Positions 1 to 37,830 of a stretch of 64,000 bases of DNA are shown here, one piece after another. Positions within the stretch are counted from its first letter, which is position 1, and each line of letters begins with the position of its first letter. The stretch lies in assembly GCF_000026545.1 (NCBI RefSeq), contig NC_011601.1. One strand, written 5' to 3'. Origin of the DNA: Escherichia coli O127:H6 str. E2348/69 (lineage in GTDB: Bacteria; Pseudomonadota; Gammaproteobacteria; Enterobacterales; Enterobacteriaceae). Made by a program: the position numbers and the translations under genes. The notes beneath the pieces are model-generated. The model did no database searches. It saw nothing but the letters and a program-made list of their open reading frames with translations, and had not been told where the DNA came from.

Positions 1-631
1 AAGCCACACCAGAAACAACAGACCCCACCATGCCCCCCATCCAGGTTAACAGGCCATGAATGGTTACTTTCTCGGAAAAATCAGCCAGAGGGGCAACCAC
101 ATCAAGACCACCCGGAGCGACAATTTTAATTTTCCTGGTATCAGGATTAAGCTCAAAATAGGTGCTGCCATCGTCACTACGCAACTGTGTGGCACTGGTA
201 TTAATACCGCTAATCTTCCTCGCCTGCGACTGGGGGCCTACAATACAAAACGCATCCGATAAATCATGCATTCTGTCATCGACCGGTTCCTGTATTCCGC
301 CGCTCTGCCACCAGAAATCAATACAACGATCGGCAAAAACGACAAGACACTCATCCCCGGCTTTAATCGGAAACGTTAGCGTACATCCTCCGCCACGTGG
401 GAATACCACTGGAACATCCACCAGCAATGGGTAATTTTTGGTAATGCGGTTGCCGTCATTATCCTTTTCAACCGAACGGATAGCAGGCTGCACAACCGCC
501 GTCACCGCATCAGGATCGAATGACTGAATAATGCCAGGCAAGGCGACTCGGATCTGATTCTTTGTTGTTTCCCGTTCAGATTTGAATGTTTCGGCAAGGT
601 CGCCGCTGCGGGTCTGGTCAGATACTGCCAT
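1..631 (-). CDS. Baseplate spike/assembly protein (gpV / Mu gp45-like), C-terminus runs off window start
   Basis: Minus-strand frame open from ATG at 631-629 (GGAG RBS upstream) to position 1; hand translation MAVSDQTRSGDLAETF...VAPGGLDVVAPLADFSEKVTIHGLL resembles baseplate V-type proteins; not in ORF track because no stop in window. Confidence 0.45.
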   Translation of the reverse strand, partial: MAVSDQTRSGDLAETFKSERETTKNQIRVALPGIIQSFDPDAVTAVVQPAIRSVEKDNDGNRITKNYPLLVDVPVVFPRGGGCTLTFPIKAGDECLVVFADRCIDFWWQSGGIQEPVDDRMHDLSDAFCIVGPQSQARKISGINTSATQLRSDDGSTYFELNPDTRKIKIVAPGGLDVVAPLADFSEKVTIHGLLTWMGGMVGSVVSGVA

Positions 632-650
632 TTGGTAGGCTCCAGAAAGC

Positions 651-679
651 AAAAAACCCGCCGAATGGCGGGTTTTGTT
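651..679 (-). terminator. Rho-independent terminator (symmetric hairpin) closing the two-gene cargo operon
   Basis: GC hairpin cccgccgaatggcggg flanked by A-run on one side and T-run on the other; lies directly after stop of 696..1091. Confidence 0.65.
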
Positions 680-695
680 AATTCACTGAATGAGT

Positions 696-1091
696 TTAAA
701 CAGCTTCATCAGTCTTCATTTTTTCCCACTGAGAAAAAATAGTCTTAACCTCTAAGAGAGATTGCTGTGCCATTGCTTTATCTATTGCACAGCTAGTGAG
801 GTCATAATCTGCTTCATTTCGAGCCAGTCTCTGTTGCTCAAGTTTGTAAGCCATGGATTTTAGGCTTAATGGATCATATGGCTCCAGTTTGTTTTCACTC
901 TTATTTTTAAGATAAGAGATAAGACTGGAATGATGATCCTTCGTATAAGCAGGAAGACTGGTCAGATTCTCTTTTATTTCATGGTAAAGCGCATAATATG
1001 CCCGCGAAATAGTATTACGATAACCAACTTCAGAATCCTCCGCAAAGCAACGCTCCGCTGAAGATAAAAACTCAGAGCTAGTTATAGGCAT
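696..1091 (-). CDS. Hypothetical 131-aa protein with R-x6-H motif (possible HEPN-like fold); distal gene of cargo operon
   Basis: ORF track; start overlaps end of upstream gene (1078..1091); motif RAYYALYH at aa 30-37; region looks AT-rich by eye. Confidence 0.6.
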   Translation of the reverse strand: MPITSSEFLSSAERCFAEDSEVGYRNTISRAYYALYHEIKENLTSLPAYTKDHHSSLISYLKNKSENKLEPYDPLSLKSMAYKLEQQRLARNEADYDLTSCAIDKAMAQQSLLEVKTIFSQWEKMKTDEAV

Positions 1092-1848
1092 ATTTACACC
1101 CTTTCAAGCTATTTCTTTCAACGGAAAAACGTGCAATAAGATTGCAATCATCAAGTAAATCGATTGAACAAATTTCATCTGCAAGTCGCATATTCATTGC
1201 AACCACCTGTTCAGGGGATGCATTAACTACCTCAACCAGATAAGTCCCACCAGATGCACCGTTGATGTCAGCACGATATTCAGTTGGAGGGAATTCAGCC
1301 ATGACTCTATGAACAGCAAGAGCAACTTGCATGTATTGTTCTGAAGAGCATCCTGACTTTTTGTATGCTTCATCCATATCGTGAATTACCTCCTGCAAGA
1401 AGGCTTCTGCGTCATCCCTATGTTCTTCTTGGGATAACATTTTGCAATGACGTCCAAAATATTCTACGCATTTTGATAGTTTCCCTACCAAATACGCAAC
1501 GCCACCAGCCCTATAAGTAAACCACTTGGTTGGATACTTATCAGCTAAAGAATAGATGTAGTAGTCCGATTTTTCGAGTAGAGAAAAACGCTCAAGCAGC
1601 TTACAAAAAATCCGCGCAAAGTTAACATCAGCATGTGGGAGGATAGCTTCAAGCATTTCAATCCCGACACTCACATCACCTTTAGCAATATGAGCCAAAG
1701 CTACAAGCGTGTCAGCAGGCGGAGTACGCTTAGAGCCATACTCCGAGACCACCTGTCGAAAGGTCCAAATATCAAGAGGTTGACCGCTATTGATTATCTT
1801 AACCAACTGGTCAAAACGCTCTTCCGCTTTCAGTTTTGGTCTTGCCAC
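1078..1848 (-). CDS. Hypothetical 256-aa protein, proximal gene of cargo operon
   Basis: ORF track; no recognisable family; coupled to downstream 131-aa gene; flanked by terminator-like hairpins. Confidence 0.6.
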   Translation of the reverse strand: MARPKLKAEERFDQLVKIINSGQPLDIWTFRQVVSEYGSKRTPPADTLVALAHIAKGDVSVGIEMLEAILPHADVNFARIFCKLLERFSLLEKSDYYIYSLADKYPTKWFTYRAGGVAYLVGKLSKCVEYFGRHCKMLSQEEHRDDAEAFLQEVIHDMDEAYKKSGCSSEQYMQVALAVHRVMAEFPPTEYRADINGASGGTYLVEVVNASPEQVVAMNMRLADEICSIDLLDDCNLIARFSVERNSLKGCKYAYN

Positions 1849-1936
1849 AGTACGCTCGCTACTTATCTTTTGGTTGAATTTTATGTTCGCGTATACAGTT
1901 TAGTCAATCCGAAGCTCGTGCTGTTGAGCCGTTTCG

Positions 1937-1963
1937 CACAAAATCATCCTTGCAAAAAGGATG
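1937..1963 (-). terminator. Putative rho-independent terminator after the signal-peptide gene
   Basis: Inverted repeat catcctt/aaggatg followed on minus strand by ATTTTGTG. Confidence 0.4.
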
Positions 1964-1968
1964 GGACT

Positions 1969-2310
1969 TCAACCATCAACCTTTTTACACGGGAAAGAGC
2001 CGATGATTTTCGGTGCATCCATGCTGTTCTGCAGAAGCTGGACGTTCAGGAAACGCGTTTCGGTGCCAGGGCGACGAATGTATTCAAAGCCGTAGTTGTT
2101 ACCGTCTTTGGCAGGCATAAGCCCCATATCAATCTTAATGCCATCAGCACCAAGATTTGTAATTTTCTGAGATGTGACGCGTTCACCGTTAATCATGTCC
2201 ATTTCCCCCAACCTTGCAGTGATGGTGTAAGGTCCACAATAAGCGGTGTAACCGCTTGCAGATGCCCCAAATGACATAAAGGCAACAATTAAAATGGCTA
2301 AGGCTTTCAC
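1969..2310 (-). CDS. Secreted/periplasmic hypothetical protein (signal peptide), GTG start
   Basis: ORF track; N-terminus MKALAILIVAFMSFGASA is a typical Sec signal peptide; start codon is GTG 2 nt after stop of 2313..3374. Confidence 0.55.
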   Translation of the reverse strand: MKALAILIVAFMSFGASASGYTAYCGPYTITARLGEMDMINGERVTSQKITNLGADGIKIDMGLMPAKDGNNYGFEYIRRPGTETRFLNVQLLQNSMDAPKIIGSFPCKKVDG

Positions 2311-2312
2311 AT

Positions 2313-3374
2313 TTACCCCCGGTTAAGCGAGTCCTGAGTGCGGAGATCCGCCGCGCCACGCGCTTCGCACATCATATCCATGTACCACGCCAGGCCCCTT
2401 GTATCGCCAGTGTACATAATCCCGCGCACAATATAAACGCCATCCGTTGCGATGCTGGCAGGCTGCGATGTGGTGCCGCTTAGCGTGATATTTCCATCCG
2501 TGTTCTGGTCGGTGATCTGACCACCAGCCATCGCAATATCGTTGTTCGACAAGGCGGTACGATACACGGAAGCCTGATCCAGCTGAATGAGTCCGTTAAC
2601 CCGGATGTTCGGATTAATAAGCGCGCGGACGTTTACGCCGTTACCGATAGTCTGCTGCGGCATGCCAATAAGCCCGGTAGCGCTGTTGAGCACAATCGCT
2701 TCATGAACATATTCGTTATTCGCCACCATCTGGCGTTGACCGTCCACGAATTGCCATGTTGCGCCACATTGTCCGGCCACGTTATCCATAAGATGCCGTG
2801 TCATGCCGAACAGCACCCGCCCTCGAGGGAATACGGTAGCAGGCATTTCAGGCGTCAGGCCTTCGGTCGCGCCTTTGGCTTCGAAGTCTTTCATCAGCGC
2901 ACGGTTCACATCAGCGACCGTGTAACCGGCAGCCAGCGTCTGTGAGGTTATACTGGTGGCAAAAGCCAGATCAGTATCTGCTGCCTGAATCAGGACGTAG
3001 GTATCAACCGGACTGTCTTTTCCTGTGACCGAGTAGCGAATTTCACCGCTGAAAATCAGTCCGTAGTTGCGGCCATCTCTCTGGCCCACGTCCGCCGCGT
3101 CAACTTCCCGCACGGTCCCTACGTCGCTTGCTGACACCTCTGGCGCGACACCGTCGTAACCGGCAATCAGACGCACTTTCGAAAATTCCTGCCCGGTGAT
3201 TCGGTTCACAGTATCTGCCGAGAGGTTATAAATTTTGATAGTCCCTACCCGGGACGCGCTGCTGATGTTGAACCAGTCGATCGTAAAGGTGACTTTGAAA
3301 TCACTTAGCTCAATTCCCTGACCGTTCCCGTCCACAAGCTGCAGCTCGAAATGTCTCATCCAGTTCTGTGACAT
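2313..3374 (-). CDS. Tail/baseplate protein (putative baseplate hub)
   Basis: ORF track; position between tape-measure-proximal genes and gpV-like gene in a Mu/SfV-like tail cluster. Confidence 0.45.
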   Translation of the reverse strand: MSQNWMRHFELQLVDGNGQGIELSDFKVTFTIDWFNISSASRVGTIKIYNLSADTVNRITGQEFSKVRLIAGYDGVAPEVSASDVGTVREVDAADVGQRDGRNYGLIFSGEIRYSVTGKDSPVDTYVLIQAADTDLAFATSITSQTLAAGYTVADVNRALMKDFEAKGATEGLTPEMPATVFPRGRVLFGMTRHLMDNVAGQCGATWQFVDGQRQMVANNEYVHEAIVLNSATGLIGMPQQTIGNGVNVRALINPNIRVNGLIQLDQASVYRTALSNNDIAMAGGQITDQNTDGNITLSGTTSQPASIATDGVYIVRGIMYTGDTRGLAWYMDMMCEARGAADLRTQDSLNRG

Positions 3375-3376
3375 GC

Positions 3377-3679
3377 TTACTCCGTTGATACCAGTAAATG
3401 ACTGAGGCCGCCCAGATCAGTTTTCGTGGGATAATCCTGTGTGTTGTCATCGCAGACCACCACCAGCTTAAAACCAAGTCCCATACAGGCGTACTGCGCC
3501 AGCAGATCAGCGCCAGTGACGAGAGGAATACCGGAGATTACCGGCTCCCCTCTGTCGTTCTGCAGGTCCATAATCCAGTAAGGATCGCGCCATATGATGC
3601 TAATCCGCCAGGTGACACCACCCAGGACGATGCTGAACTGCTGGTTGTCCGCTGTCAGCGGAATTTCCTGAATTGTCAT
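3377..3679 (-). CDS. Tail protein (hypothetical)
   Basis: ORF track; tightly packed in tail cluster. Confidence 0.4.
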   Translation of the reverse strand: MTIQEIPLTADNQQFSIVLGGVTWRISIIWRDPYWIMDLQNDRGEPVISGIPLVTGADLLAQYACMGLGFKLVVVCDDNTQDYPTKTDLGGLSHLLVSTE

Positions 3680-4266
3680 TAGCCGCCTCCCAGTAATGAC
3701 GCCACGTTACCAGTGATGCTTTTCAGCAGTGAAGTATCTGGAGGCTTTGTGGTTTTGTTGCCGCTGTTCTGTACCGCCGACGTGCTGGCCCCTTCCTTCA
3801 TGTTGGTTTTATCCGCGACGGTAATCTGCTGTGTCCGGGAGATAAGGACCTCCCTCAGGGTGAGGACGGCGGACAGGACGTTTTCGGTTGTCTTGTCCGT
3901 CGTCACTTCCAGCGCCCGGATCAACATGTTGCTGTACAGTCGTTTACCGGTTACCACATCGAAGGGGATACGGCTTTCCTGCAGATCCAGTAGCTCCTGA
4001 TACGTCTGCTGAGGACTCAGGCCGAGCAGGCTGGTAGCCGTCAGATTACTGGCAAAATCCAGCAATGCGCCGCCACCGGCGAAACCAACCTCCATCACCA
4101 CTTCTGACGGTTTTTTATAGGCATGATCAGCGACAGCGGCCCCGACCTCTACCGGATGCTCTGTTATTTCAAGCATATCTGTATGCTTCTCTGAAATAAC
4201 AACACTGGGAACAATCATTCCTATTTTTCTGCTCTGCTGATGAAAAAGTGTAGAGAGAATATCCAC
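3679..4266 (-). CDS. Tail protein (hypothetical; immediately after tape measure)
   Basis: ORF track; start overlaps tape measure stop. Confidence 0.45.
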   Translation of the reverse strand: MDILSTLFHQQSRKIGMIVPSVVISEKHTDMLEITEHPVEVGAAVADHAYKKPSEVVMEVGFAGGGALLDFASNLTATSLLGLSPQQTYQELLDLQESRIPFDVVTGKRLYSNMLIRALEVTTDKTTENVLSAVLTLREVLISRTQQITVADKTNMKEGASTSAVQNSGNKTTKPPDTSLLKSITGNVASLLGGG

Positions 4267-6254
4267 TAACCCACCCTCACCTGATTACTTCGCATGACCT
4301 GAGCATTTGCAGACTGTTGCCGACGTGCAACCTCATTACCGACAGCGTGCGGATCTCCGCCACCGTAAATGTGGTAAGTATTTTGCTGGTTAACCTCTGT
4401 CATTTTGCCACTAATTCCCGTCACGGCAGCCTTATTAATCAGCTCTCGAGAATAGATATTTCTTCCATTTTCATGCTGGATAATGCTGCTCATCAATGCT
4501 GACATGGTTTGCGGATCGCTCATATTCAGGGCAGCCCGGGGATCCACTCCCAGTCGTTGCGATACAGCCCTGATATACGCAGTTGTGTTGTTATTATCAG
4601 ACGCAGGTGCCCAGGTAGAGATAATTTTCTCCACGCTGTTTATTCCACGTCCGGCGTACAACATTAACTGACGAGCAAGAGCCCGTAATCCATCAAAAGC
4701 AGTTTCAAATCTGGCAAATCGCCCGCCCGGGCGTTCAAGAGAAGCCCCTGCCTGACCAGCAAAATTAAGGTTTCCCGGATTGTTATTCCGTTCTCCTCGT
4801 TTCGTAGCCTGTGCATATTGTTCCGGCTCATCATCACCAAACCAGCCGCGTACCGTCCGGCCCACACTGCGGGGATCGAATCCCCAGTGCTCTTTAATCC
4901 AGTCGGCAGTACTGTTAGCGCTGTCTGTAACCATCGGCATCGCTGACGGATTTTCGCTGCCCTGATTAAGTATCTGTTTGCCGATGCTGACGGCATCAGC
5001 CCAGCGGCCATCTTTGATAGCGTTGAGCAGGTCGGCGATCATGTTCAGCATTTTGCTGAATTCGCCCATCTGGTCGATGAAGTTGCTGAAATCCCACTTC
5101 AGGGACCATGATTTGGGGTCAATATTGAGCAGTTTCGCCAGCGCTTTCACCAGTTCATTAACAGACCCTTTCAGGTCACGAACCATCTTCAGCGCGGCAT
5201 CGACCTCCGGCTTCCACTTGCCCCAGTCAATCAGGCTGTCGCCGCCTTCCTTCCAGGTCTGATAGTCCTCCCACAGAAGGGCAATCCCCGCCGCCAGCGC
5301 GGTAATGAGGCCAATCGGCGACATCCAGAACGTACTGTTCAGAATGCGCAGCGCAATCGTCAGCGCGCCAAACAGCGAGATGAGCTCCCGCGTTTGCTTA
5401 TCCAGCGATTGCCACCAGGTGATAAGGCTGGATGTTCCCTCAATTAGCCTGAAGAACAGCCGCCCGATGATGTCTCCGAGCGCCAGAATGCCTTTTATGG
5501 CTTTCGTCAGGGTCTGCTCGATGCGCGGGAAGTTATCGAGGATGTGGCGGCGCAGTGTGTCCAGCGAACCCGCCAGACCACCAGCAAGATTAGAGCCGAT
5601 TTTGTCACGGGCCATGCCTGCCATCGCGCCGAACTCGCGCAGGGAGGTCATGAATTTGTTGGAGCTTCTGGCCGCCTCGTCAGTATTGAAGCCGATAGCT
5701 TTCGCCATTGCGCTGTACTGCCCGGAGAAATCACCCACACCCCGGCGCATCGCCATGAGGGTATTTTCGTCAATACCCAGCATCTGCGCATACTGGTTAG
5801 CCCGGTAATACGGCATGCTGCTGAGCTTCTGTCCGACACCCGTAAAAATAGCGGCCATGTCGCGCATGTTGCCGCTGGCGTCACGGGTCTGTACGCCCAG
5901 GCGATTCAGAAAGCCTTCTGCACCGGGATTGTTACGAATAAACCGGGAGAGGCTTTCCAGAGAAGATCGCGCAGCGTCCACGCTGCCGCCAACCTGCGAA
6001 ACCGCATAGCCAATAGACTGAATCCCCTGAACCGTCGCGCCGGTGCGCTGTGACGCCCAGTAGAGATTATCCAGACCGGAGGCGATCTTGGCCGTGAAGG
6101 CCACCACGGACAGCGCAGCTCCTTCAACAGCCAGCCCCATTTTGATGACATTTGCAGTTGTACCGGCGAGGACAGAACCGAATTTTTTCGCGCCTGCATC
6201 ATCCACACTGAAGCCAAGCGAGACAAGGAAATCTTTAATAGTTTCAGCGTTCAT
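4266..6254 (-). CDS. Tail tape measure protein
   Basis: Largest gene in tail cluster, Gly/Ala-rich with predicted helices; ORF track gives 4266..6275 from TTG, ATG with GGAGAG RBS at 6254 preferred. Confidence 0.65.
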   Translation of the reverse strand: MNAETIKDFLVSLGFSVDDAGAKKFGSVLAGTTANVIKMGLAVEGAALSVVAFTAKIASGLDNLYWASQRTGATVQGIQSIGYAVSQVGGSVDAARSSLESLSRFIRNNPGAEGFLNRLGVQTRDASGNMRDMAAIFTGVGQKLSSMPYYRANQYAQMLGIDENTLMAMRRGVGDFSGQYSAMAKAIGFNTDEAARSSNKFMTSLREFGAMAGMARDKIGSNLAGGLAGSLDTLRRHILDNFPRIEQTLTKAIKGILALGDIIGRLFFRLIEGTSSLITWWQSLDKQTRELISLFGALTIALRILNSTFWMSPIGLITALAAGIALLWEDYQTWKEGGDSLIDWGKWKPEVDAALKMVRDLKGSVNELVKALAKLLNIDPKSWSLKWDFSNFIDQMGEFSKMLNMIADLLNAIKDGRWADAVSIGKQILNQGSENPSAMPMVTDSANSTADWIKEHWGFDPRSVGRTVRGWFGDDEPEQYAQATKRGERNNNPGNLNFAGQAGASLERPGGRFARFETAFDGLRALARQLMLYAGRGINSVEKIISTWAPASDNNNTTAYIRAVSQRLGVDPRAALNMSDPQTMSALMSSIIQHENGRNIYSRELINKAAVTGISGKMTEVNQQNTYHIYGGGDPHAVGNEVARRQQSANAQVMRSNQVRVG

Positions 6255-6431
6255 TATCCTCTCTCCATTTCTCAATGCGCCGCTGGTTATCCGCTTTTAC
6301 CGCCAGATGGTCATTCAAGAGAGCAATGTCATACAAATCGACAGAGCCATCTTTAAGTGCTGTATAAGGAATTAACCCGGCGTCAACCGGATTGAGAAGG
6401 TAGGACAGCCCGTCCGGCAGGCTGTTAAACG

Positions 6432-6884
6432 TCAGCCCTGTTGCAGGCTCTGCGTCGTGCTGGTAAGGGGTGTAGGCAAAAAATTTCCCAGCGAATCGGC
6501 GACCACCCGCGCCACCAGCTGCAGCATGGTTAGCAGGTCGATATCATCGAACATCAGCTGACCGCTGTTGAATACCGGCGTCCATCCGTCCATGTGCTTA
6601 CGTGACACTACGGCCAGGCAAGGATGAATAATCGCGTTGGTATCTTCTTCAGTCAGGGAAGACAGTTCCTCAGCGATACGCGGGAGCATGGCTTCAAACA
6701 CCGGTTTTAACTGCTCGAATTTCACGGTGTCGATTTTGCCGTCGGCAGGCAAACGGGAGCGAATGCTCCCGAAATCTGACATCATTCCTGCCAGCACCGG
6801 CAGAAGTTTGCGGGTCACTTTCAGCTGATCAAAAACGCTGAGTTTTGCCGCGCGATATTTCACGCCTTTGATTTCGAATTCCAT
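6432..6884 (-). CDS. Tail assembly chaperone (putative)
   Basis: Position between tube gene and tape measure. Confidence 0.4.
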   Translation of the reverse strand: MEFEIKGVKYRAAKLSVFDQLKVTRKLLPVLAGMMSDFGSIRSRLPADGKIDTVKFEQLKPVFEAMLPRIAEELSSLTEEDTNAIIHPCLAVVSRKHMDGWTPVFNSGQLMFDDIDLLTMLQLVARVVADSLGNFLPTPLTSTTQSLQQG

Positions 6885-6887
6885 GTA

Positions 6888-7328
6888 TTAAAACTCCCCG
6901 AGAACCTGGTCAATCTTGCCGCAGTCAAACACCCACGGCATCGTATTACCGGCCTTAGCGTTGGCGTTATCCGGCTGTTTCTGGAACGCCACGCTGCGCG
7001 CCGTGATGATGTCTCCGCTCACCTTGTTTCGGATCACAATGACGTTGTTCCCCCAGGTGCCTGAGGACTGACTCTGCGCGTTGTACGCCAGCGACAGCTT
7101 TTTGTTTGTCGGCGAGGTTTTCAGCAGGTTGACGGTTACCGTGCCGCTTTTGTCCGCGTGCAGGCTGTGCATCACTTCGCCGTCAGCACCGATGGTCATG
7201 GTGTTTTTGGGACCGCCCATTGCAACAGTGATCCCCTCCTCTGAACTGGCGGAACCGTAGCCAAGATCAATCTCGCCGGTCGGGCCGGAGAGGGACGCCG
7301 TAACGTCCATAAAAGAATAAGTAGCCAT
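6888..7328 (-). CDS. Tail tube protein (putative)
   Basis: ORF track; small protein directly after sheath-sized gene. Confidence 0.5.
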   Translation of the reverse strand: MATYSFMDVTASLSGPTGEIDLGYGSASSEEGITVAMGGPKNTMTIGADGEVMHSLHADKSGTVTVNLLKTSPTNKKLSLAYNAQSQSSGTWGNNVIVIRNKVSGDIITARSVAFQKQPDNANAKAGNTMPWVFDCGKIDQVLGEF

Positions 7329-7339
7329 TCATGTTCTCC

Positions 7340-8485: not shown

Positions 8486-8488
8486 AGC

Positions 8489-29635: not shown

Positions 29636-30019
29636 ATGACACGCAGAACTCAGTTCAAAGGCAATTCACGTTCTCGTCGTCGTGAGCGTTTAAAGGCAAA
29701 GGCATTAGCTAACGGCGTACTGGCCCGCGAAGAAGCAATAAGTTCAGAAGTATTACACCGCCCTACTCTAAGCAGAGCGCAGATTCAGGCTAAAGGTACT
29801 CACGAAACGCCTGAGCGCATAGAAGACGCTAAGCCAATTAAGTTCATGGCACAGGACGTGATCTGGCAACAGAAAGAATACAGACGCAATCTGGAGCGAG
29901 CGGCCATTGTGTACGCGAATGAGTTTGGACATAAGCAACCAGAAACTGGTGTATGTCTTCCAAACGTAGCCATTTACGCGGCAGGATACCGGAAATCAAA
30001 ACAACTGACAGCAAGATGA
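29636..30019 (+). CDS. N: Antiterminator N-like protein (P22 gp24-type, Arg-rich motif)
   Basis: Arg-rich N-terminus NSRSRRRERLKAKA and C-terminus AIYAAGYRKSKQLTAR resemble P22 gene 24 product; first gene after pL. Confidence 0.6.
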   Translation: MTRRTQFKGNSRSRRRERLKAKALANGVLAREEAISSEVLHRPTLSRAQIQAKGTHETPERIEDAKPIKFMAQDVIWQQKEYRRNLERAAIVYANEFGHKQPETGVCLPNVAIYAAGYRKSKQLTAR

Positions 30020-30077: not shown

Positions 30078-30548
30078 ATGACAAAATCATGGAGCGTACC
30101 TTTTCCTGAATCAGAAACTGAACATGAGGGAATGCCTGTTTTCTGGAGATTCCAGGCGACAGTTGAAGAAGATGGAATCAAAATATTCGCACTTCAATAT
30201 ATAGCTTTTCATCAGACAGAGCATTATGCATGGTTGGTTCCTGCGCATTGGATTGTTAATTTTAAACCAGCACCAAATCAGTGGTTACAGGAATGGAAAC
30301 AAAAGAGAAATAGATATGCAATTAAGAAAGTAGCAAAAAATGCAGAAAGATCTTTTGCATTCCCAACGAAGAAACTTGCCATTGAAAGTTTATTGCGCCG
30401 AAAGAAATACCATTTAATGAGAATCAAACAAGATTTGGCTGTTGTATCAACTCTTGTTGATGGGATGAAGAATATTGATACATCAACACCAGATATTGAA
30501 TATAACTTTGGACACAACCAAGAAACAGAAAATTGGGTATTCTACTAG
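30078..30548 (+). CDS. Hypothetical 156-aa protein in the ral/sieB slot
   Basis: ORF track; AT-rich by eye; followed by hairpin terminator. Confidence 0.5.
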   Translation: MTKSWSVPFPESETEHEGMPVFWRFQATVEEDGIKIFALQYIAFHQTEHYAWLVPAHWIVNFKPAPNQWLQEWKQKRNRYAIKKVAKNAERSFAFPTKKLAIESLLRRKKYHLMRIKQDLAVVSTLVDGMKNIDTSTPDIEYNFGHNQETENWVFY

Positions 30549-30573
30549 GCCGCATAGTCGGCCTTTATTTTTG
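30548..30573 (+). terminator. Putative rho-independent terminator
   Basis: Hairpin aggccgcatagtcggcct plus T-run. Confidence 0.45.
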
Positions 30574-30594
30574 GCATAAACAACAGAGGCTAAC

Positions 30595-30891
30595 ATGGGA
30601 TTTAAAGGTACTGAAGGTAAGTGGGAAATAATGATGGATGGGGATGAGATTAAAATCATCCAGGCAGACTCTCTTGAAAATGGCACAGGCTGGCGTTCGT
30701 ATATTGCAATCTGTGAGGAAGTTCAATGTATTGAAGATGCCAATCTAATAGCGGCAGCACCTGACCTTCTCGAAGCACTTCAGTTATTACTTAATCAATC
30801 CAAAAATAGAACAACGACAACATATCCAGAATGGTATGGAGCTGTTAATAAAGGTCTTGCAGCAATCAGAAAAGCTCTTGGGGATAAGTAA
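30595..30891 (+). CDS. Hypothetical 98-aa protein
   Basis: ORF track; AT-rich by eye. Confidence 0.45.
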   Translation: MGFKGTEGKWEIMMDGDEIKIIQADSLENGTGWRSYIAICEEVQCIEDANLIAAAPDLLEALQLLLNQSKNRTTTTYPEWYGAVNKGLAAIRKALGDK

Positions 30892-31079
30892 TGAAAGTAA
30901 AAATAACTGCTTCTAACACCAGTTTTATTAGTGTTGGTGATATTACAGAAGTAATAACAAACCATGATGGAACCCAAGTTATGTGGTCTGATCTTTGTAA
31001 AAGATATGAGCGAGTTAGTTGGTGTAAACTCGTATGGGGCGTCGAATACGAAGAAATACCTGAAATGCATGACGAATAA
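30891..31079 (+). CDS. Hypothetical 62-aa protein (ATGA-coupled to upstream gene)
   Basis: ORF track. Confidence 0.4.
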   Translation: MKVKITASNTSFISVGDITEVITNHDGTQVMWSDLCKRYERVSWCKLVWGVEYEEIPEMHDE

Positions 31080-31213
31080 GCACTGTGTATTCATTCCAAC
31101 GAGTGAATACACGGAGCAATGTCGCTCGTAACTAAACAGGAGCCGACTTGTTCTGATTATTGGAAATCTTCTTTGCCCTCCAATGTGAGGGCGATTTTTT
31201 TAACGGAGGATAT

Positions 31214-32182
31214 ATGAGTGAAGTAACAGATTTAGTTGTTATTGAAAAAGCAAATGCAATGACTGTATTTCAGTCTGCCGACCAGATTGAAGAAATCCTT
31301 CAAAAGGTTGAACGTGAAGTTATGTCCTTTGTGCCTGATATCACAACGGCAAAGGGCAGAAAGGAGATCGCTTCTCTGGCGTATAAAGTTGCGCAGACGA
31401 AAACATATCTCGATGGCCTTGGCAAAGACCTTGTTGCTGAACTGAAGGAAATTCCAAAGCTAATTGATGCCAACCGCAAGACAGTGCGCGATCGCCTTGA
31501 TGAGCTGAAAGCCAAGGCGCGCCAGCCTCTTACTGATTATGAGGAAGAACAGGCGCGGATTAAAGCCGAAGAAGAAGCTAAGGCAGCAGCTGAAGCTCTC
31601 GCAAAGCAAATTGAGTCTGACCATGAAATAGCGATTTTGATGGATCGCGAATTTGACCGCCAAAGAGAAGAGGCAAGACTCAAAGCGGAGCAGGAAAAGC
31701 GAGAGCATGAAGAACGCTTAAAAAGAGAAGCTGAAGAGAAAGCCAGAGCAGAAGCCGAAGCAAAGGCAAAAGCCGAAATTGAAGCAGCAGCAAGGCGAGA
31801 AGCAGAAGCTAAGGCCGCAGCGGAACGTGCAGAGCGTGAACGCATTGAAGCCGAGCAACGAGCACAGCGCGAAGCAAAAGAGGCAGCAGAACGAGCTGAA
31901 AGAGAAAAGCAGGCGGCAATTGAAGCAGAACGCCGAAAAGCACAGGAGGAGGCTGAACGAATCCGGCGCGAGGCTGAAGCAAAAGAGCAAGCCAGAATAG
32001 CAGAAGAAAAAAGAATCAAGGACGAAGAAGAGCGTAGAGCAAAGGATAAAGCTCACCGGAAAGAAGTAAATAACAAAATACTTGCTGACCTTATCAAGGT
32101 TGGTGCATCAGAAGATGTTGCTAAAAATATCATAACAGCCATCGCAAAAGGCGAAGTATTCGCAACAAAAATAACCTACTAA
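31214..32182 (+). CDS. Coiled-coil protein with long low-complexity E/K/R/A-rich region
   Basis: ORF track 31160..32182 trimmed to ATG 31214 (GGAGGA RBS). Confidence 0.5.
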   Translation: MSEVTDLVVIEKANAMTVFQSADQIEEILQKVEREVMSFVPDITTAKGRKEIASLAYKVAQTKTYLDGLGKDLVAELKEIPKLIDANRKTVRDRLDELKAKARQPLTDYEEEQARIKAEEEAKAAAEALAKQIESDHEIAILMDREFDRQREEARLKAEQEKREHEERLKREAEEKARAEAEAKAKAEIEAAARREAEAKAAAERAERERIEAEQRAQREAKEAAERAEREKQAAIEAERRKAQEEAERIRREAEAKEQARIAEEKRIKDEEERRAKDKAHRKEVNNKILADLIKVGASEDVAKNIITAIAKGEVFATKITY

Positions 32183-32205
32183 TAAACCAACATAAGGAAC
32201 CACCC

Positions 32206-32337
32206 ATGATTTACGCAATCGCGGGAGGCGCTCGCATGGGTGCCTTCCAACTAAATGAATCTTTACTTGAACGAATCACCCGTAAATTACGTGACGGATG
32301 GAAAAGAGTTGAGGTCTTATTATGCGCAATGAAATAG
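32206..32337 (+). CDS. cIII: cIII-like protein
   Basis: Hand translation MIYAIAGGARMGAFQLNESLLERITRKLRDGWKR... shares ESLLERITRKLRDGWKR with lambda CIII. Confidence 0.6.
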   Translation: MIYAIAGGARMGAFQLNESLLERITRKLRDGWKRVEVLLCAMK

Positions 32338-32474
32338 CCATCAATCACCAGATGCTTCGTGCTGCACAGAACAAAGCAGTAATAGCCAGATTTATTGGTG
32401 ATTCAAAAATGTGGCTTGAAGCAAATAAAGCGATGAAATCAGCTATCAACCTTCCGTGGTATCGCAGGAAATGA
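32322..32474 (+). CDS. kil: Kil-like small protein
   Basis: Hand translation MRNEIAINHQMLRAAQNKAVIARFIGDSKMWLEANKAMKSAINLPWYRRK resembles lambda Kil (FIGDEKMF region). Confidence 0.45.
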   Translation: MRNEIAINHQMLRAAQNKAVIARFIGDSKMWLEANKAMKSAINLPWYRRK

Positions 32475-32728
32475 GTTTTACAGATAACTGGTCAGACGAA
32501 GAATTCATTCGTCAGATGAAAGAATTAATCGGTAACGAAGGAGATATTCATGTCACTTGCAACCACAGTGAAGGAGAGCAAGTTACAGAGACGCATGTAC
32601 ACGCAGAAAGCTCTCTGGTATCGCCATAATGGTGACCGCGAAGGAATGCGGGTATGCCTTAATTTGTCCCGAGTCGAAGTATTAAATCAGCGTTATTTCC
32701 TTGGGCCGTGTCCATTCTGAGGTGAATT

Positions 32729-33436
32729 ATGGATTTGAACAAATTCGATGAGCCATTCAGCCCTGAAGATATAGAATGGAGAATACAGCAAAGCGGTAAA
32801 ACACGCGATGGCAAGGTGTGGGCTATGGTGCTGGCTTATGTCACGAACAGGGCAATCATGAAACGCCTTGACGATGTTTGCGGCAAAGCAGGATGGCGCA
32901 ATGAATACCGAGATATTCCCAACAACGGAGGCGTTGAATGCGGCATATCAATCAGGATTGATTCCGAATGGGTAACCAAATGGGATGCTGCTGAAAACAC
33001 GCAGGTAGAAGCCGTAAAAGGTGGTCGTTCCGGTGCAATGAAGCGCGCTGCCGTTCAGTGGGGAATCGGTCGGTATCTGTATAACCTTGAGGAAGGTTTC
33101 GCACAAACATCTCTCGATAAAAAGCAGGGATGGCACAGGGCAAAACTCAAGGATGGAACAGGATTTTACTGGCTCCCTCCATCGCTGCCGGGATGGGCAA
33201 TCCCAGCATCAGATAACAAACCATCACCAGAAAATACCAACCAGACATCTCCATCGGTTGACTGCGAACAAATCCTGAAAGACTTCAGCGATTATGCATC
33301 AACAGAAACTGACAAGAAAAAACTCATCGAGCGTTATCAGCGTGACTGGCAATTAATGGCTGGCAACGAGGAGGCACAGGCTAAATGCGTTCAGGTAATG
33401 AACATCAGAGTTAACGAACTAAAACAGGCGGCATAA
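32729..33436 (+). CDS. Single-strand annealing protein, Rad52/Sak-like
   Basis: Rad52-type core recognised; occupies bet/erf position. Confidence 0.65.
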   Translation: MDLNKFDEPFSPEDIEWRIQQSGKTRDGKVWAMVLAYVTNRAIMKRLDDVCGKAGWRNEYRDIPNNGGVECGISIRIDSEWVTKWDAAENTQVEAVKGGRSGAMKRAAVQWGIGRYLYNLEEGFAQTSLDKKQGWHRAKLKDGTGFYWLPPSLPGWAIPASDNKPSPENTNQTSPSVDCEQILKDFSDYASTETDKKKLIERYQRDWQLMAGNEEAQAKCVQVMNIRVNELKQAA

Positions 33437-33904
33437 ATGTCTCACTTGGACGGAATTATTAAAAGATTCGAGTCCAGCTACAAAGTTAATGAAACAACAG
33501 GTTGCTGGGAGTCTACCTATTCAAAAAACAAAGGAGGATACACAAAATTTGTAGCCTTTGGCGTAACAATGCTTTCTCATCGGGTTGCTTTTGAGCTTTA
33601 TCACTCCCCCATTCCATCTGGGAAGATGGTTTGCCACAAATGCGATAACCAATGCTGCGTTAATCCTGAACATCTCTTTTTAGGTAGCGCGCAAGAAAAC
33701 ATGGACGACAAGATAGCAAAAGGAAGGCATCGTGGAGCCAAGAAAGGTCATGCTCATCATGGTGCAAAATTAACAGAGTGGCAGGTTATAGAAATTAGGA
33801 AAAGACTCTCTGAAAAAGAGAGTCAGTACAAGATAGCAAAAGACATGGGTGTATCTCAATCAATTATAAGCAACATAAAAACTGGCAAGAGGTGGAGCAA
33901 ATGA
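33437..33904 (+). CDS. HNH homing endonuclease (free-standing, between annealase and ssb)
   Basis: HNH motif [26 protein letters not shown]. Confidence 0.75.
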
Positions 33905-34407
33905 GTTCTCGCGGGATAAATAAGGTGATTATCCTTGGTCGGGTAGGACAAGACCCGGAAGTTCGATACTCACCATCAGGAACAGCGTTCGCTAACCTGA
34001 CAATAGCCACGTCAGAACAATGGCGAGATAAAAATACTGGCGAGCAAAAGGAATTGACTGAATGGCATCGTGTTGCTGTATCCGGGAAACTGGCTGAGGT
34101 CGTGGGGCAGTATGTGAAAAAAGGTGATCAGATTTATTTCGAGGGAATGCTGAGAACCAGAAAGTGGAAAGACCAGTCAGGGCAAGACCGTTACACAACC
34201 GAGGTTCATGTCGGAATTAATGGCGTGATGCAAATGCTTGGCGGCATTGGCGACAGCAAACAACAAGCAGCCAGCAGGCAATCACAGAAGCCACAGCAGC
34301 AATCATCACCAGCACAACACAACGAACCTCCGATGGATTTTGACGACGATATACCCTTTGCACCAGTAACTCTCCCCTTCCCTCGTCACGCTATTCACGC
34401 AATTTAA
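33892..34407 (+). CDS. ssb: Single-stranded DNA-binding protein
   Basis: OB-fold SSB N-terminus, Gln/Pro-rich linker and acidic DDDIPF tail. Confidence 0.85.
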
Positions 34408-34420
34408 TCAGGAGAAAATC

Positions 34421-34714
34421 ATGCCAGCGCCTCTGTATGGTGCGGATGACCCGCGCCGCTGTTCCGGCAATTCCGTATCGGAGGTGCTGGATAAATTCAG
34501 AAAAAACTACGATCGAATAATGTCTCTACCGCAGGAAACGAAAGAGGAAAAGGAATTTCGCCACTGTATATGGCTTGCAGAGAAAGAAGAACGCGAGCGA
34601 ATTTACCAGACATCAATCCGACCATTCCGCAAAGCCACATATACCCACTTCCCTGAAATTGACCCGCGCCTGCGTAATTACCGCTCACGTTATGGCGCTA
34701 TCAGTAATGACTGA
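34421..34714 (+). CDS. Hypothetical protein
   Basis: ORF track. Confidence 0.4.
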
Positions 34715-34724: not shown

Positions 34725-34892
34725 ATGAGAGGACTTGCATACAATCCCGGCATTCTTCCGGCAGAAATGATTATTCGCCAACGCGTAAAGCCAATGCCAT
34801 CGAGAGAGGAATTGCTTAAGAGAAATTCTTCTCCGTCAGTGAATCAAAACAAATATCTGAATGCGATGTGGCGCAAAGGAGGCAACCAGTGA
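34725..34892 (+). CDS. Small hypothetical protein
   Basis: ORF track 34575..34892 trimmed to ATG 34725 with GAGGA RBS. Confidence 0.3.
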
Positions 34893-35158
34893 GTGAGTCA
34901 AAATGCCAAATTAATGGCAACAAGATAGAACCGTGCGCGGCGTTGGCAAAATCTCTCGAATATGGAAATCCAACATTCAAGAGTAAAGGCATATTTATCC
35001 CGGAGCGTGTGAACATAAACACCGGCGAGTCATGCATAGATATTGCTCAAATTCACTCGGGGAAATATATCGGTCGTGGCGTTGCAATGTGCTTTTGCCC
35101 GTTCTGTGGTGAAAGTTTGAAAACGTGGGAAGCGGAGGCAGCCAGTGAGCAAAATTGA
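34868..35158 (+). CDS. Hypothetical Cys-rich protein
   Basis: ORF track; CxxC pair near C-terminus. Confidence 0.35.
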
Positions 35159-35783
35159 CCATCAGGCACTGCGTGAGGCGGCAGAGCAGGCAATGCATGA
35201 CGACTGGGGATTTGACGCGGACCTTTTCCATGAGCTGGTAACACCATCGATTGTGCTGGAACTGCTGGATGAACAGGAAAGAAACCAGCAATACATCAAA
35301 CGCCGCGACCAGGAGAACGAGGAGATTGCGCTTACGGTTGGGAAGCTGCGTGTTGAGCTTGAAGCAGCAGAGAACAACCTTATTGATAGTGAATGCCATG
35401 TTGCTGAACTGGAAGAAGCTCTACGCGATAAGCAGGCGTTACTTGAAGCCTCAGAAAAGCGCAACGCAAAATTACAAAGCGAGAATGCATACATCCGCAA
35501 CCGGTACAAAGAACTGGACCTATTAATCGGGAAAAACATTCTGGTCATGCAGGCTGCCATTATCGAATGGCAGGCAACTGGCGACGCTAAGAGCGGACTA
35601 GCATGGATTTATAACACACTGTTTGGCCCTGGCGAATTACCGGACGAATCTGAGAAAGATGCTCAGGCCTACTTTAATCGCAAATATGCACCGATTGACG
35701 AAAAGCTTATGGCGCTTCACAAGTGGTTTTGGGAACAAAGTGAAGCCGAGCGCGCCGCTGGCATTCGCATCAAAGGAGAGTGA
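35145..35783 (+). CDS. Ea22-like early protein (coiled coil)
   Basis: Resembles lambdoid Ea22-family proteins as recalled. Confidence 0.5.
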   Translation: MSKIDHQALREAAEQAMHDDWGFDADLFHELVTPSIVLELLDEQERNQQYIKRRDQENEEIALTVGKLRVELEAAENNLIDSECHVAELEEALRDKQALLEASEKRNAKLQSENAYIRNRYKELDLLIGKNILVMQAAIIEWQATGDAKSGLAWIYNTLFGPGELPDESEKDAQAYFNRKYAPIDEKLMALHKWFWEQSEAERAAGIRIKGE

Positions 35784-35784
35784 G

Positions 35785-35976
35785 ATGAACGGACAAATCT
35801 CAATTGTTCGACCGGGAGCATGTGACGATTGCGAGATACGAATGATTATTCGTCTGGCGAGGGGGAAAACAATAACTGCTCTCATTACTCCAGAAAATCT
35901 CGCATTAGCATTAACCGGAAAGTCAGACCTGCCAGTAGAGCTAAAGCTGCGAAATGTTGAGATTAAGGTGAAATAG
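35785..35976 (+). CDS. Small hypothetical protein
   Basis: ORF track 35623..35976 trimmed to ATG 35785. Confidence 0.35.
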   Translation: MNGQISIVRPGACDDCEIRMIIRLARGKTITALITPENLALALTGKSDLPVELKLRNVEIKVK

Positions 35977-35978
35977 CT

Positions 35979-36374
35979 ATGACCACTATTACCAAAGAGC
36001 GACTGCTGACAATCAAGCAGTGGCGCGAAACATACGGACCGGGTAGCAACGTTGTACTGCCAGCAGAAGAAGCGGAAGAACTGGCACGAATTGCTCTGGC
36101 ATCGCTGGAAGTCGAGCCGATAGGTTTCCGTTGCAGGCGCAATGATAACCTTGGTGATTGGAGTTACGTATATCATCGAGAGCCAGATGATTTTGAGCGC
36201 AAACATTTAGTGATAGAGGGCATTTACGCCGCCCCTCCAGCGCAAGTAGTACCGAAAGAAAAACCAATGCCTAATCCTCTTAGCATGTACGCGGTTGATG
36301 CTGTTGCCGCTATTGCAGAGGTGAGAGGCTGGAACGCCTGCCGTGCCGCTATGCTTCAGGGGAAAGGAGACTGA
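35979..36374 (+). CDS. Hypothetical protein; N-terminus paralogous to 36584..37216
   Basis: Shared MTTITxE...ELARIALASLE segment with downstream DUF551-type protein. Confidence 0.45.
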   Translation: MTTITKERLLTIKQWRETYGPGSNVVLPAEEAEELARIALASLEVEPIGFRCRRNDNLGDWSYVYHREPDDFERKHLVIEGIYAAPPAQVVPKEKPMPNPLSMYAVDAVAAIAEVRGWNACRAAMLQGKGD

Positions 36375-36375
36375 T

Positions 36376-36573
36376 ATGGATAAAAACACCACTGCTTACT
36401 GGAATCTGTCACTTGATACCGAATGCCCAAAATGCGGTCACAATTTCGATCTGCTTTGTGACGCTGATTTCTGGGAGTTTTCTGGAGCTAAACAGGCATG
36501 TGAAGAAATAAAAGGTTACGAAACATGCTGTCCAGAATGTAACCATGAATTTAAAACAGATTTCGTGTATTGA
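36376..36573 (+). CDS. Small zinc-ribbon protein (two CxxC pairs)
   Basis: ORF track 36343..36573 trimmed to ATG 36376; CPKCGH...CCPECNH. Confidence 0.4.
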   Translation: MDKNTTAYWNLSLDTECPKCGHNFDLLCDADFWEFSGAKQACEEIKGYETCCPECNHEFKTDFVY

Positions 36574-36583
36574 GGCATAACAA

Positions 36584-37216
36584 ATGACCACTATTACCAG
36601 AGAACAGGCACAGAAAATTATTGAAGCAGCCGATGAGGTTATTAGTGCGCTTGCCGGAACTAACGAGGATGTTCACCCTGGTAGCGATAACATGCTACGC
36701 CTGTGGGATGACCTGAATGACCGTTACGCGCCCCCTGAAGTTGTGCGTGAGCTGGCACGAATTGCACTGGCATCACTGGAAGCAGAGCCTGTAAGCCAAA
36801 CTTACAACTTGCCAGAATTAATCGAAGGGATGGAAGTTTCCATTGATGTAAGCACTTGTGATGCTGATTTAGGTAATCGCTATTTCGGTACCGTCACCGA
36901 GGCGTTAGAACTTGATACAGCCAAGAATGGTTACATCCTCCTAGTTCAGGACGCAGAGCCAAACTTCGATGTAAATGGCAACTCTCCGGTAATTCCGGGC
37001 GGTTGGATAAGCTGTAGTGAGCGAATGCCGGATAGCAAAACAGCCGTTCTTGTTGCCAGGGAGTTTGACAGGAAAGGTGACTGGCGAATGAAATGGGCGA
37101 CTTACATCCCGGGGCATCCTGACGCTAATGATGGGTGGGTAATACCTGGTGCGTCGTGGATACCATCACACTGGATGCCGCTACCAGAACCGCCGCAGGA
37201 GGTTAACCATGGCTAA
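36584..37216 (+). CDS. DUF551-type protein
   Basis: C-terminal W-rich DUF551-like region (WISCSERMPDS...WMPLPEPP). Confidence 0.5.
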   Translation: MTTITREQAQKIIEAADEVISALAGTNEDVHPGSDNMLRLWDDLNDRYAPPEVVRELARIALASLEAEPVSQTYNLPELIEGMEVSIDVSTCDADLGNRYFGTVTEALELDTAKNGYILLVQDAEPNFDVNGNSPVIPGGWISCSERMPDSKTAVLVAREFDRKGDWRMKWATYIPGHPDANDGWVIPGASWIPSHWMPLPEPPQEVNHG

Positions 37217-37316
37217 CCTGCAACTTGCCGTCAAAGGTGAATAACAATCCTCGCACTCGCGGGGATTTCTTTTATCTGAACTCGCTACGGCGAGTTTTGT
37301 TTTATGGAGATGATAA

Positions 37317-37484
37317 ATGCACTTCCGAGTCACAGGTGAATGGAATGGAGAACCATTCAACAGAGTTATCGAAGCGGAGAACATCAACGACTGCTATGAC
37401 CACTGGATGCTGTGGGCGCAGATAGCACATGCAGACGTAACCAATATTCGAATTGAAGAACTGAAAGAACACCAAGCCGCCTGA
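37317..37484 (+). CDS. Small hypothetical protein (55 aa)
   Basis: Hand translation MHFRVTGEWNGEPF...; followed by hairpin plus T-run terminator. Confidence 0.4.
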   Translation: MHFRVTGEWNGEPFNRVIEAENINDCYDHWMLWAQIAHADVTNIRIEELKEHQAA

Positions 37485-37498
37485 TGGCGGTTTTTTAT
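37476..37498 (+). terminator. Putative rho-independent terminator
   Basis: Hairpin ccgcc-tgat-ggcgg followed by TTTTTTATT. Confidence 0.5.
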
Positions 37499-37541
37499 TA
37501 CCTGATTTGCAGGTTCGATTCCCTATTCGGAGATAGCACTC

Positions 37542-37742
37542 ATGCAACACGAATTACAGCCTGATTCACTGGTTGATTTGAAATTCATCATGGCCGATAC
37601 TGGCTTCGGTAAAACCTTCATCTATGACCGGATTAAGTCCGGCGACCTGCCAAAAGCCAAAGTTATCCACGGGCGAGCAAGATGGTTATATCGTGACCAT
37701 TGTGAATTCAAAAATAAGCTCTTAAGCCGCGCCAATGGGTAA
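37542..37742 (+). CDS. torI: Excisionase / recombination directionality factor TorI
   Basis: 66-aa translation matches the KplE1 TorI sequence as recalled; located at prophage right end next to attR. Confidence 0.75.
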   Translation: MQHELQPDSLVDLKFIMADTGFGKTFIYDRIKSGDLPKAKVIHGRARWLYRDHCEFKNKLLSRANG

Positions 37743-37816
37743 AATAGCGGGTAAAATATTTCTCACATCTAAAAAACTCCATTCCAATCAATCCCCTGCC
37801 GCTTCAAGTAGATGTC

Positions 37817-37830
37817 TGCAGGGGACACCA
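37817..37830. other. attR core: duplicated 3' end of tRNA-Arg argW
   Basis: ctgcaggggacacca matches the 3' acceptor end of argW as recalled; phage-type genes stop here. Confidence 0.5.

Follow-up and report, generated by a model that had tools for sequence, protein, structure and literature searches.

A probable temperate lambdoid phage with a contractile-tail module integrated at argW of Escherichia coli O127:H6 E2348/69

The prophage and its boundaries

The 64,000-nucleotide stretch of the Escherichia coli O127:H6 E2348/69 genome described here, hereafter referred to as the window, holds most of a prophage integrated at the 3' end of argW, a gene for tRNA-Arg. The window was matched over its full length at 100% identity by megablast in three assemblies of this strain, and corresponds to positions 2551214-2615213 of NZ_LT827011.1, a record in which the whole prophage spans about 2545715-2589043. 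Window positions 1-37830 make up the right-hand 87% of the prophage, which in its complete form measures 43,329 bp with a GC (guanine plus cytosine) content of 0.49. The genes at this locus very probably belong to a single 43.3-kb temperate lambdoid phage with a contractile tail. This reading draws on strain identity, the boundaries of the element, the apparent origins of its modules, exact operators, an N protein matched to its nut sites and full-length open reading frames (ORFs), as far as these can be judged from sequence.

The RefSeq annotation, produced by the Prokaryotic Genome Annotation Pipeline (PGAP), was used for the window region and for 15 kb to its left. Coordinates in L001, which includes these 15 kb, equal window coordinates plus 15000, and those in L002 equal window coordinates minus 34686. 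Every annotated product was compared by tblastn (E<=1e-3), and the DNA by blastn, with phages lambda, P22, SfV, Mu, HK97, SEN34, vB_EcoM-611R5 and Sf6 and with the KplE1 locus of E. coli K-12. In addition, window positions 1-20000 and 18000-41000 were used as megablast queries against 5,426 complete E. coli genomes.

At the right end (37542-37830, plus strand), torI (37542-37742), encoding an excisionase or recombination directionality factor, is followed by the attR core CTGCAGGGGACACCA at 37816-37830, an exact 15-bp repeat of the 3' end of argW. The second copy consists of the last 15 bases of argW itself (L001 9502-9516; window -5498 to -5484), 5.5 kb to the left of the window. The core, CTGCAGGGGACACCA(T), has thus been duplicated from the argW 3' end, with no mismatch between the two ends of the prophage. 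No third copy was found in the window or L001, even with up to two mismatches allowed. A single pair of attachment (att) sites with no further core copies therefore delimits a single prophage of 43,329 bp. An earlier reading made from the sequence alone (the sequence-only reading) had drawn the element from 1 to 37830. Its right limit is the exact edge of attR, while its left limit is only the edge of the window, beyond which lie another 5.5 kb of prophage with intS, attL/argW, a Gin-type invertase remnant, a tail-fibre assembly gene, a tail-fibre gene and three baseplate-wedge genes.

According to annotation and tblastn, the genes follow the order int, tail, head, terminase, lysis, Q, nin, P, O, cII, cro, cI, N, cIII, recombination, early accessory (ea) and xis, which is the canonical order of lambdoid modules. 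Two elements, adjacent or nested (such as a myovirus tail and head cluster or a tailocin beside a lambdoid remnant), would account for the difference in GC content between the virion genes (about 0.54) and the early region (about 0.42-0.50). The distribution of the two halves points the same way: the virion part (1-20000) is covered to at least 80% in 149 complete E. coli genomes, and the early region with the junction (18000-41000) is covered to that extent only in the three E2348/69 assemblies. Phage vB_EcoM-611R5 also joins the same virion module to a quite different early region. However, there are only two att core copies and one integrase/excisionase pair, placed at the ends; the lambdoid gene order is continuous, with the late operon running from Q and pR' through lysis and terminase genes into head and tail; and 43.3 kb fits one capsid, the SEN34 genome being 40.7 kb. 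Such exchange of modules is the norm for lambdoid phages, and a widespread virion module within a full combination restricted to E2348/69 is the pattern that modular exchange predicts. Two elements are accordingly the least probable of the explanations considered, and a single phage is preferred.

Head and tail genes

The virion genes, all on the minus strand, begin with the small terminase, large terminase and portal (DUF1073) genes at 13934-17555 (phrog_51, phrog_2 and phrog_146, respectively). The large terminase is 100% identical to that of vB_EcoM-611R5 and 96% identical to that of SEN34. The head genes at 8489-13896 encode neck or head-completion proteins, a major capsid protein (DUF2184), a cement protein, a DUF2213 scaffold/protease-like protein and a head morphogenesis protein with a Mu-F domain; they include members of phrog_264, phrog_1961 and phrog_324 and show 77-99% amino acid identity to SEN34 and 611R5 proteins. 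The tail sheath (DUF3383), tail tube (DUF3277) and tail assembly chaperone genes occupy 6432-8485, as recognised by Pfam and by phrog_280 and phrog_205. They are followed at 1969-6408 by genes for a DUF6889 protein, the tape measure (phrog_2276), Dit-like proteins, a plug and the baseplate hub (phrog_196), with 83-99% amino acid identity to SEN34/611R5. A baseplate spike gene (1-631), whose 3' end lies beyond the start of the window, is 98% identical at the amino acid level to its counterpart in vB_EcoM-611R5 and 67% identical to that in SEN34.

From terminase to baseplate, this 17-kb module is collinear with those of SEN34 and 611R5 and is of the SEN34 type. Across window positions 1-17190, 15.3 kb aligned with SEN34 at 79-85% nucleotide identity and 16 kb with vB_EcoM-611R5 at 93-98%; the virion proteins share 66-97% and 74-100% amino acid identity with those of the two phages, respectively. 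SEN34 itself was obtained by mitomycin induction; it combines a contractile tail with lambda-like early genes and was assigned to a new lambda-like cluster (PMC5261728). A related tail module in Rosenbergiella carries precomputed Pfam names that indicate a contractile tail of the PhiTE, E217 and Pam3 type.

The sequence-only reading had instead seen a Mu/SfV-like virion, in keeping with the Mu-F, sheath and tube genes, all of which are indeed present. The Mu-F domain (PF04233, Phage_Mu_F) was detected in the head morphogenesis protein with E=1.3e-17. This domain is found across many unrelated phages and is not diagnostic, and the protein carrying it belongs to phrog_324, whereas Mu gp30 belongs to phrog_220. 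Similarly, the sheath, tube, capsid and portal proteins fall in phrog_205, 280, 264 and 146, as against phrog_165, 185, 371 and 113 in Mu and phrog_165, 185, 10 and 12 in SfV, so that all four differ in family from Mu L, M, T and gp29 and from SfV orf11, 12, 5 and 3. By blastn no nucleotide match to Mu was found, and the match to SfV was limited to the Rz/R segment of the lysis cassette. No virion protein matched Mu or SfV by tblastn at the threshold used, except baseplate J, which is 26% identical to Mu gp47. Given these PHROG and Pfam assignments and the blastn and tblastn results, the term 'myovirus' is supported and 'Mu/SfV-like' is not, and Mu and SfV were both rejected as the source of the virion module. 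By these comparisons, the virion module is of the SEN34/vB_EcoM-611R5 type with a predicted contractile tail.

Integration module and relationship to KplE1

IntS and TorI are both 100% identical to the proteins of KplE1 (CPS-53) in K-12, and the placing of the integrase at attL and the recombination directionality factor at attR is that of a KplE1-type recombination module. Site-specific recombination of the IntS/TorI type would place the phage genome in the 3' end of argW. The same recombination module has already been documented as common to HK620, Sf6, CUS-3 and many argW prophages (PMC2951348, PMC3509656).

The sequence-only reading had recognised TorI and an argW attR at the right end, which the identical TorI and exact attR core bear out. 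It had further proposed that the prophage is an intact relative of KplE1, and this did not hold beyond the integration module (intS/attL and torI/attR). KplE1 is a 10.2-kb remnant that shares the argW attachment site, the intS left end and the torI right end with the prophage; unlike the prophage, it lacks repressor, replication, lysis and head genes, and its gtr, yfdP-T and methyltransferase region matches SfV (PMC2951348). In our alignments, KplE1 had 5.2 kb in common with SfV at 82-97% identity, and its matches to the prophage were confined to intS (1.4 kb), torI/attR (339 bp) and a fibre gene (69 bp). Since KplE1 is SfV-like outside the recombination module, the prophage is not 'an intact KplE1', and the idea that KplE1 is a degraded version of this phage was likewise rejected.

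Taken as a whole, a chimera with a Mu/SfV-like virion that is the intact counterpart of the defective KplE1 could call on the Mu-F domain, the distant baseplate J match, the identical IntS and TorI, and spanins resembling those of SfV (Rz 83% and Rz1 72% identical). Against it stand the absence of any nucleotide match to Mu and of any to SfV beyond Rz/R, the different PHROG families of the sheath, tube, capsid and portal together with the DUF3383 sheath, and the fact that KplE1 shares 5.2 kb with SfV and little but its ends with the prophage. This explanation appears already refuted at the level of sequence families, and we consider it very improbable.

Immunity region

The immunity region comprises cro (27317-27517, minus strand), operators OR1-OR3 (27544-27607) and cI (27618-28331, plus strand), followed on the other side by operators OL3-OL1 (29325-29385), the nutL boxB core (29458-29468) and N (29636-30019, plus strand); the two blocks span 27317-28331 and 29325-30019. 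All six operators are exact copies of those of lambda. Cro is 100% identical to lambda Cro and 98% identical to that of HK97. The cI repressor differs from lambda cI at two of 237 residues (T3A and K71N), is identical to that of HK97, and retains the self-cleavage site and the catalytic Ser and Lys. Divergent cI and cro genes with tripartite OR and OL are the arrangement of a lambdoid phage.

Because the operators are exact, Cro is identical and cI is nearly so, lambda immunity specificity, as claimed in the sequence-only reading, is a well-supported prediction. A lysogen would be expected to be immune to lambda and HK97, and for E2348/69 immunity to phages of the lambda immunity group is predicted. 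In the cell, the lambda/HK97 cI repressor would silence the prophage through the lambda operators OL and OR, RecA-stimulated cleavage of cI would derepress pL and pR, and the choice between lysis and lysogeny would be set by cII and cIII.

Antitermination, cII and replication

The N gene is a 127-codon ORF of phrog_271, an N-like family, and its product is 98% identical to HK97 N over the full length. Likeness to P22 gp24 is confined to the arginine-rich motif, which reads GNSRSRRRERLK as compared with GNAKTRRHERRRK in P22, and to the C-terminal 22% of the protein (69% identity there), so that overall similarity to gp24 is lacking. A P22-type boxB hairpin, GCGCUGACAAAGCGC, accompanies this arginine-rich motif and matches it. 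When compared with lambda, HK97 and P22, nutL reads GGCGCTGACAAAGCGCA and nutR reads GTCGCTGACAAAGCGAG. Across the 64 kb, exactly two copies of the boxB core GCTGACAAAGC are present, against a chance expectation of 0.05; one is downstream of pL and the other, of P22/HK97 type by sequence comparison (27266-27276, minus strand), downstream of pR, both correctly oriented. The paired boxB sites and the N motif thus indicate that N and its RNA targets are matched, and an HK97-type N would act on nut sites with the P22-type boxB. Exactly as in HK97, lambda-like sequence meets P22-like sequence directly after the pL start and directly after the cro stop. The description 'P22-type N' in the sequence-only reading is therefore correct as a specificity class, judged by boxB and the arginine-rich motif, but the protein overall is of the HK97 type.

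Downstream of nutR, a gene for a 90-amino-acid protein of unknown function and an HK97-type cII gene (phrog_191) occupy 26587-27178 on the minus strand. The cII protein (26882-27178) shows 90% identity to its HK97 counterpart and only 43% overall to that of lambda. At the C-terminus the tail TNKKRPAATERSEQ.QMEF matches that of lambda cII, which makes the gene a small case of intragenic mosaicism.

The replication genes follow at 24264-26524 on the minus strand and encode an O-like initiator (25637-26524) and a DnaB-type helicase (24264-25640; phrog_345). The helicase is 99% identical to that of HK97 and 90% identical to that of P22, and the C-terminus of O is 94% identical to that of HK97. Periodic 12-bp repeats of the TCATGTGCGG type lie at 26027-26169 within O, where lambda has its ori iterons. 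The presence of both genes agrees with the earlier assignment of replication to O and a DnaB-like helicase, and the O initiator and the phage-encoded DnaB-type helicase would together replicate the phage DNA.

The set formed by immunity region, N, cII and helicase is that of HK97, and it is therefore not a new chimera. The combination had been presented as chimeric; its mosaicism is real, but its novelty is not upheld, as the arrangement is that of HK97 at 97-98% nucleotide identity.

Late control and lysis

The nin region (21419-24190, minus strand) contains ninH, rusA, a DUF1364 gene, ninF, ninX, ninE, an N6-adenine methyltransferase gene and ninB, whose products are mostly 97-100% identical to those of HK97. 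The Q antiterminator gene (20904-21422; phrog_943), together with a pR'-like promoter and a tR'-like terminator, lies at 20836-21422 on the minus strand. Q is of the phage 21/Sf6 type and 98% identical to Sf6 gp59, and the promoter past Q is near-consensus (11/12) and is accompanied by the terminator. N with nutL and nutR, and Q with pR' and tR' ahead of the late operon, make up a lambdoid antitermination system. Genes for tRNA-Thr(TGT) and tRNA-Asn(GTT), found by ARAGORN and Rfam at 19987-20142 (minus strand), are present as in Sf6 and phage 21; beyond these two tRNAs, Rfam detected nothing.

The lysis cassette (18422-19744, minus strand; tblastn) consists of holin S, endolysin R, Rz and Rz1. 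S differs from lambda S by one substitution (99% identity) and is 100% identical to that of Sf6, and R is 91% identical to lambda R and 94% identical to that of SfV, which confirms the lambda-type S and R of the sequence-only reading. The phage 21/Sf6-type Q would activate the late operon from pR', and the operon would express the lambda-type holin and endolysin, the SfV-like spanins and the head and contractile-tail module of SEN34/vB_EcoM-611R5 type.

The pL operon

To the right of N, the pL operon (30078-34714, plus strand) contains an HK97 gp45-like gene, two small ORFs, an Sf6 gp33-like gene, cIII, kil, an Erf/Rad52-type recombinase gene, an HNH endonuclease gene (33437-33904), ssb and abc2. 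The ea region at 34725-37484 (plus strand), annotated by PGAP and with partial matches to lambda, P22 and Sf6, includes a DUF2737 gene, an ead/Ea22-like gene, a DUF551 gene and small ORFs.

Comparison with known phages

By these comparisons the early region is essentially HK97-like, with some segments in common with Sf6. In all, 8.7 kb aligned with HK97 at 92-98% nucleotide identity; besides cI, Cro, cII, N and the helicase, the likeness extends to ninB, the methyltransferase, ninE, rusA, ninH, kil and abc2 (96-100%), and nutR and nutL are nearly identical. HK97, however, belongs to the siphoviruses; its head and tail genes are its own, its int/xis and attB are of the lambda type and its Q is a different one. 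The two also differ in the genes downstream of cI (gp48/gp49 in HK97) and in the N-terminal half of O.

SEN34, a Brunovirus, and vB_EcoM-611R5, 689R2 and 683R1 have the collinear virion module in common with the prophage. Like the phage proposed here, SEN34 is temperate and lambda-like and has a contractile tail (PMC5261728). SEN34 differs in its repressor and cro, lambda-type P, RecT/exo recombination, integrase and Q; no nucleotide match to it was found in the early region, so that only the virion half aligns. vB_EcoM-611R5 differs in having an early region of the DNA polymerase type. In ICTV practice, members of a genus share about 70% nucleotide similarity over the whole genome. Only about 15-16 of 38 kb aligned, and by whole-genome identity the prophage is therefore not of the same species or genus as SEN34 or 611R5. 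Genus-level similarity to the SEN34-like lambdoid myoviruses (the 'temperate 26' cluster cited in PMC5261728) is lacking.

With Sf6 the prophage shares IntS (99%) and TorI (100%), the 21-type Q followed by tRNA-Asn and tRNA-Thr, the holin, and gp33, cIII, kil and Erf (99-100%). The argW attP core is common to Sf6, HK620 and other argW-integrating P22-like phages. Sf6, unlike the prophage, is a podovirus; its operators are 434-like, its N is different, and it lacks the two HNH endonuclease insertions described below. With lambda it shares cI, cro, OR and OL at 98% nucleotide identity over 1025 bp, S and R at 94% nucleotide identity, ninB (100% at the amino acid level) and a small orf beside xis (98%). 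Lambda differs in its N and boxB, rexAB, P loader, Q, int/xis/attB, exo/bet/gam and siphovirus virion.

The modules of the prophage are 90-100% identical to those of HK97, lambda, Sf6, SfV and SEN34-type phages. As these modules are all already known and the recombination module has been documented before, the mosaicism is real but ordinary, being typical of lambdoid phages.

Completeness and viability

By tblastn, every gene for structure, lysis, regulation or replication has its full length when compared with isolated and sequenced phages. A refuting observation for the proposed intact prophage would have been an inactivating lesion in an essential gene; none was found in the prophage sequence, and the operators are intact, as are the nut sites and att cores. 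PGAP labels four genes of the prophage partial. One of these, a 'partial regulator', is the last 23 codons of N, a gene otherwise uncalled by RefSeq. Another, a 'partial' tail fibre (L001 11622-12650), is an open 342-codon ORF abutting the assembly gene. Over residues 1-339 it aligns end to end with the SEN34 fibre, and a truncated fibre was thus rejected. Both RefSeq calls look like annotation artefacts. The remaining two are an invertase remnant and an ORF of the ea region, both of which are dispensable. The former is the C-terminal remnant of a Gin/Mu-type invertase (L001 11066-11263), 60% identical to Mu Gin and located beside the tail-fibre genes, and it suggests the loss of an invertible host-range segment such as that of vB_EcoM-611R5.

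Several points weigh against a functional phage. The Gin-type remnant shows some decay at the left end, and the literature searched yielded no experimental report of the prophage being induced. Missense or regulatory defects would be compatible with the sequence. The N-terminal half of O and its repeats had no match in the comparator phages, and their ori function is therefore assumed. A cryptic prophage, complete-looking and fixed but non-inducible and retained for its cargo or for immunity, would fit the decay and the missing induction report, the four partial calls and the 100% identity of the prophage in three laboratory lineages of the strain. Two of those calls are artefacts, however, and the other two concern non-essential genes; moreover, the full-length genes for structure, lysis, replication and regulation and the intact operators, nut sites and att cores speak against decay of this kind. 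A cryptic prophage is thus regarded as unlikely, though a more serious contender than the other two alternatives. No lesion is visible, but no published induction data were found either; viability is considered reasonably likely. The temperate lambdoid phage proposed here would be inducible and would form myovirus particles, presumably with headful packaging.

A complete-looking lambdoid myovirus with lambda/HK97 immunity in a reference enteropathogenic E. coli strain matters little beyond annotation. E2348/69 may nevertheless release a SEN34-type myovirus on SOS induction, which is relevant to work on phages or horizontal transfer in this strain.

Accessory genes

Of the 37.8 kb of prophage in the window, 10.7 kb had no nucleotide match in seven comparators (lambda, HK97, P22, SfV, KplE1, SEN34 and 611R5), and the GC content of this sequence is lower. 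Sf6, which was added later, covers parts of it, namely Q, gp33 and the Erf-like gene. The unmatched sequence forms about 14 segments with a GC content of 0.39-0.54, mostly at junctions of gene blocks. At least five accessory insertions had been proposed from the sequence alone; this stands as a count of variable slots, but only the two HNH genes are demonstrably insertions.

The first HNH gene (20197-20709; phrog_99) lies in a clean 704-bp insertion relative to Sf6 (20193-20896, minus strand), between tR' and tRNA-Asn, with the Sf6 alignment contiguous on both flanks. The second insertion (33440-33916) lies between the Erf-like recombinase gene and ssb, where Sf6 is likewise contiguous. Free-standing HNH insertions of this kind are a pattern typical of homing endonucleases, and PADLOC matched the two genes to its homing-endonuclease models. 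Otherwise, PADLOC returned only noise-level matches (E~0.01) on the cargo and NCBIfam nothing, and known defence systems were rejected as an explanation of these genes. The cassettes other than the HNH genes have no assigned function, and all fall in existing PHROG families. Pfam and PDB sequence searches gave nothing significant for the 182-, 145-, 256- and 131-amino-acid proteins of the three loci described below.

A gene for a 182-amino-acid protein (17575-18123, plus strand) lies beside terS on the strand opposite to the late operon. Its product, for which a confident structure model was obtained (pLDDT 90.9), has a predicted ADP-ribosyltransferase-like fold, and R94, G95, W110, S151 and E156 are invariant across 32 homologues. 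Homologous genes hold the same slot in Pantoea prophages with different head genes.

Two genes downstream of cI (28339-29134, plus strand), in the position of rexAB, encode a 145-amino-acid beta-sandwich protein and a 123-amino-acid coiled-coil protein with a C-terminal membrane helix, its hydrophobic segment lying at residues 92-110. The pair is likely co-transcribed with cI. It has no match in lambda or HK97; Salmonella phage epsilon34 carries the same pair (gp45/gp44) downstream of another repressor. A fold search with the 145-amino-acid protein returned only generic immunoglobulin-like or carbohydrate-binding-type beta-sandwiches, which are uninformative.

Within the baseplate block, overlapping genes for proteins of 256 and 131 amino acids (696-1848, minus strand; phrog_17809 and phrog_5176; GC 0.41) are absent from SEN34 and 611R5; a Rosenbergiella prophage carries counterparts with 43% identity in this slot. 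The 131-amino-acid protein has a RAYYALYH motif and weak matches to HEPN/UPF0332. It is possible, albeit doubtful, that at least one of these three loci (the 182-amino-acid gene, the cI-linked pair and the 256/131-amino-acid pair) represents a new system for superinfection exclusion, abortive infection or host modification. Screens for defence or lysogenic conversion could reasonably include the uncharacterised cargo genes.

The region to the right of attR

Next to attR on this side, positions 37984-44819 contain a 68-codon DUF4942 fragment followed by the csc sucrose genes cscB, cscK, cscA and cscR. The csc genes stand in place of dsdC and the 5' end of dsdX, and are followed by a frameshifted dsdA, emrYK and evgAS. 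This region is the variable argW-dsdCXA island.

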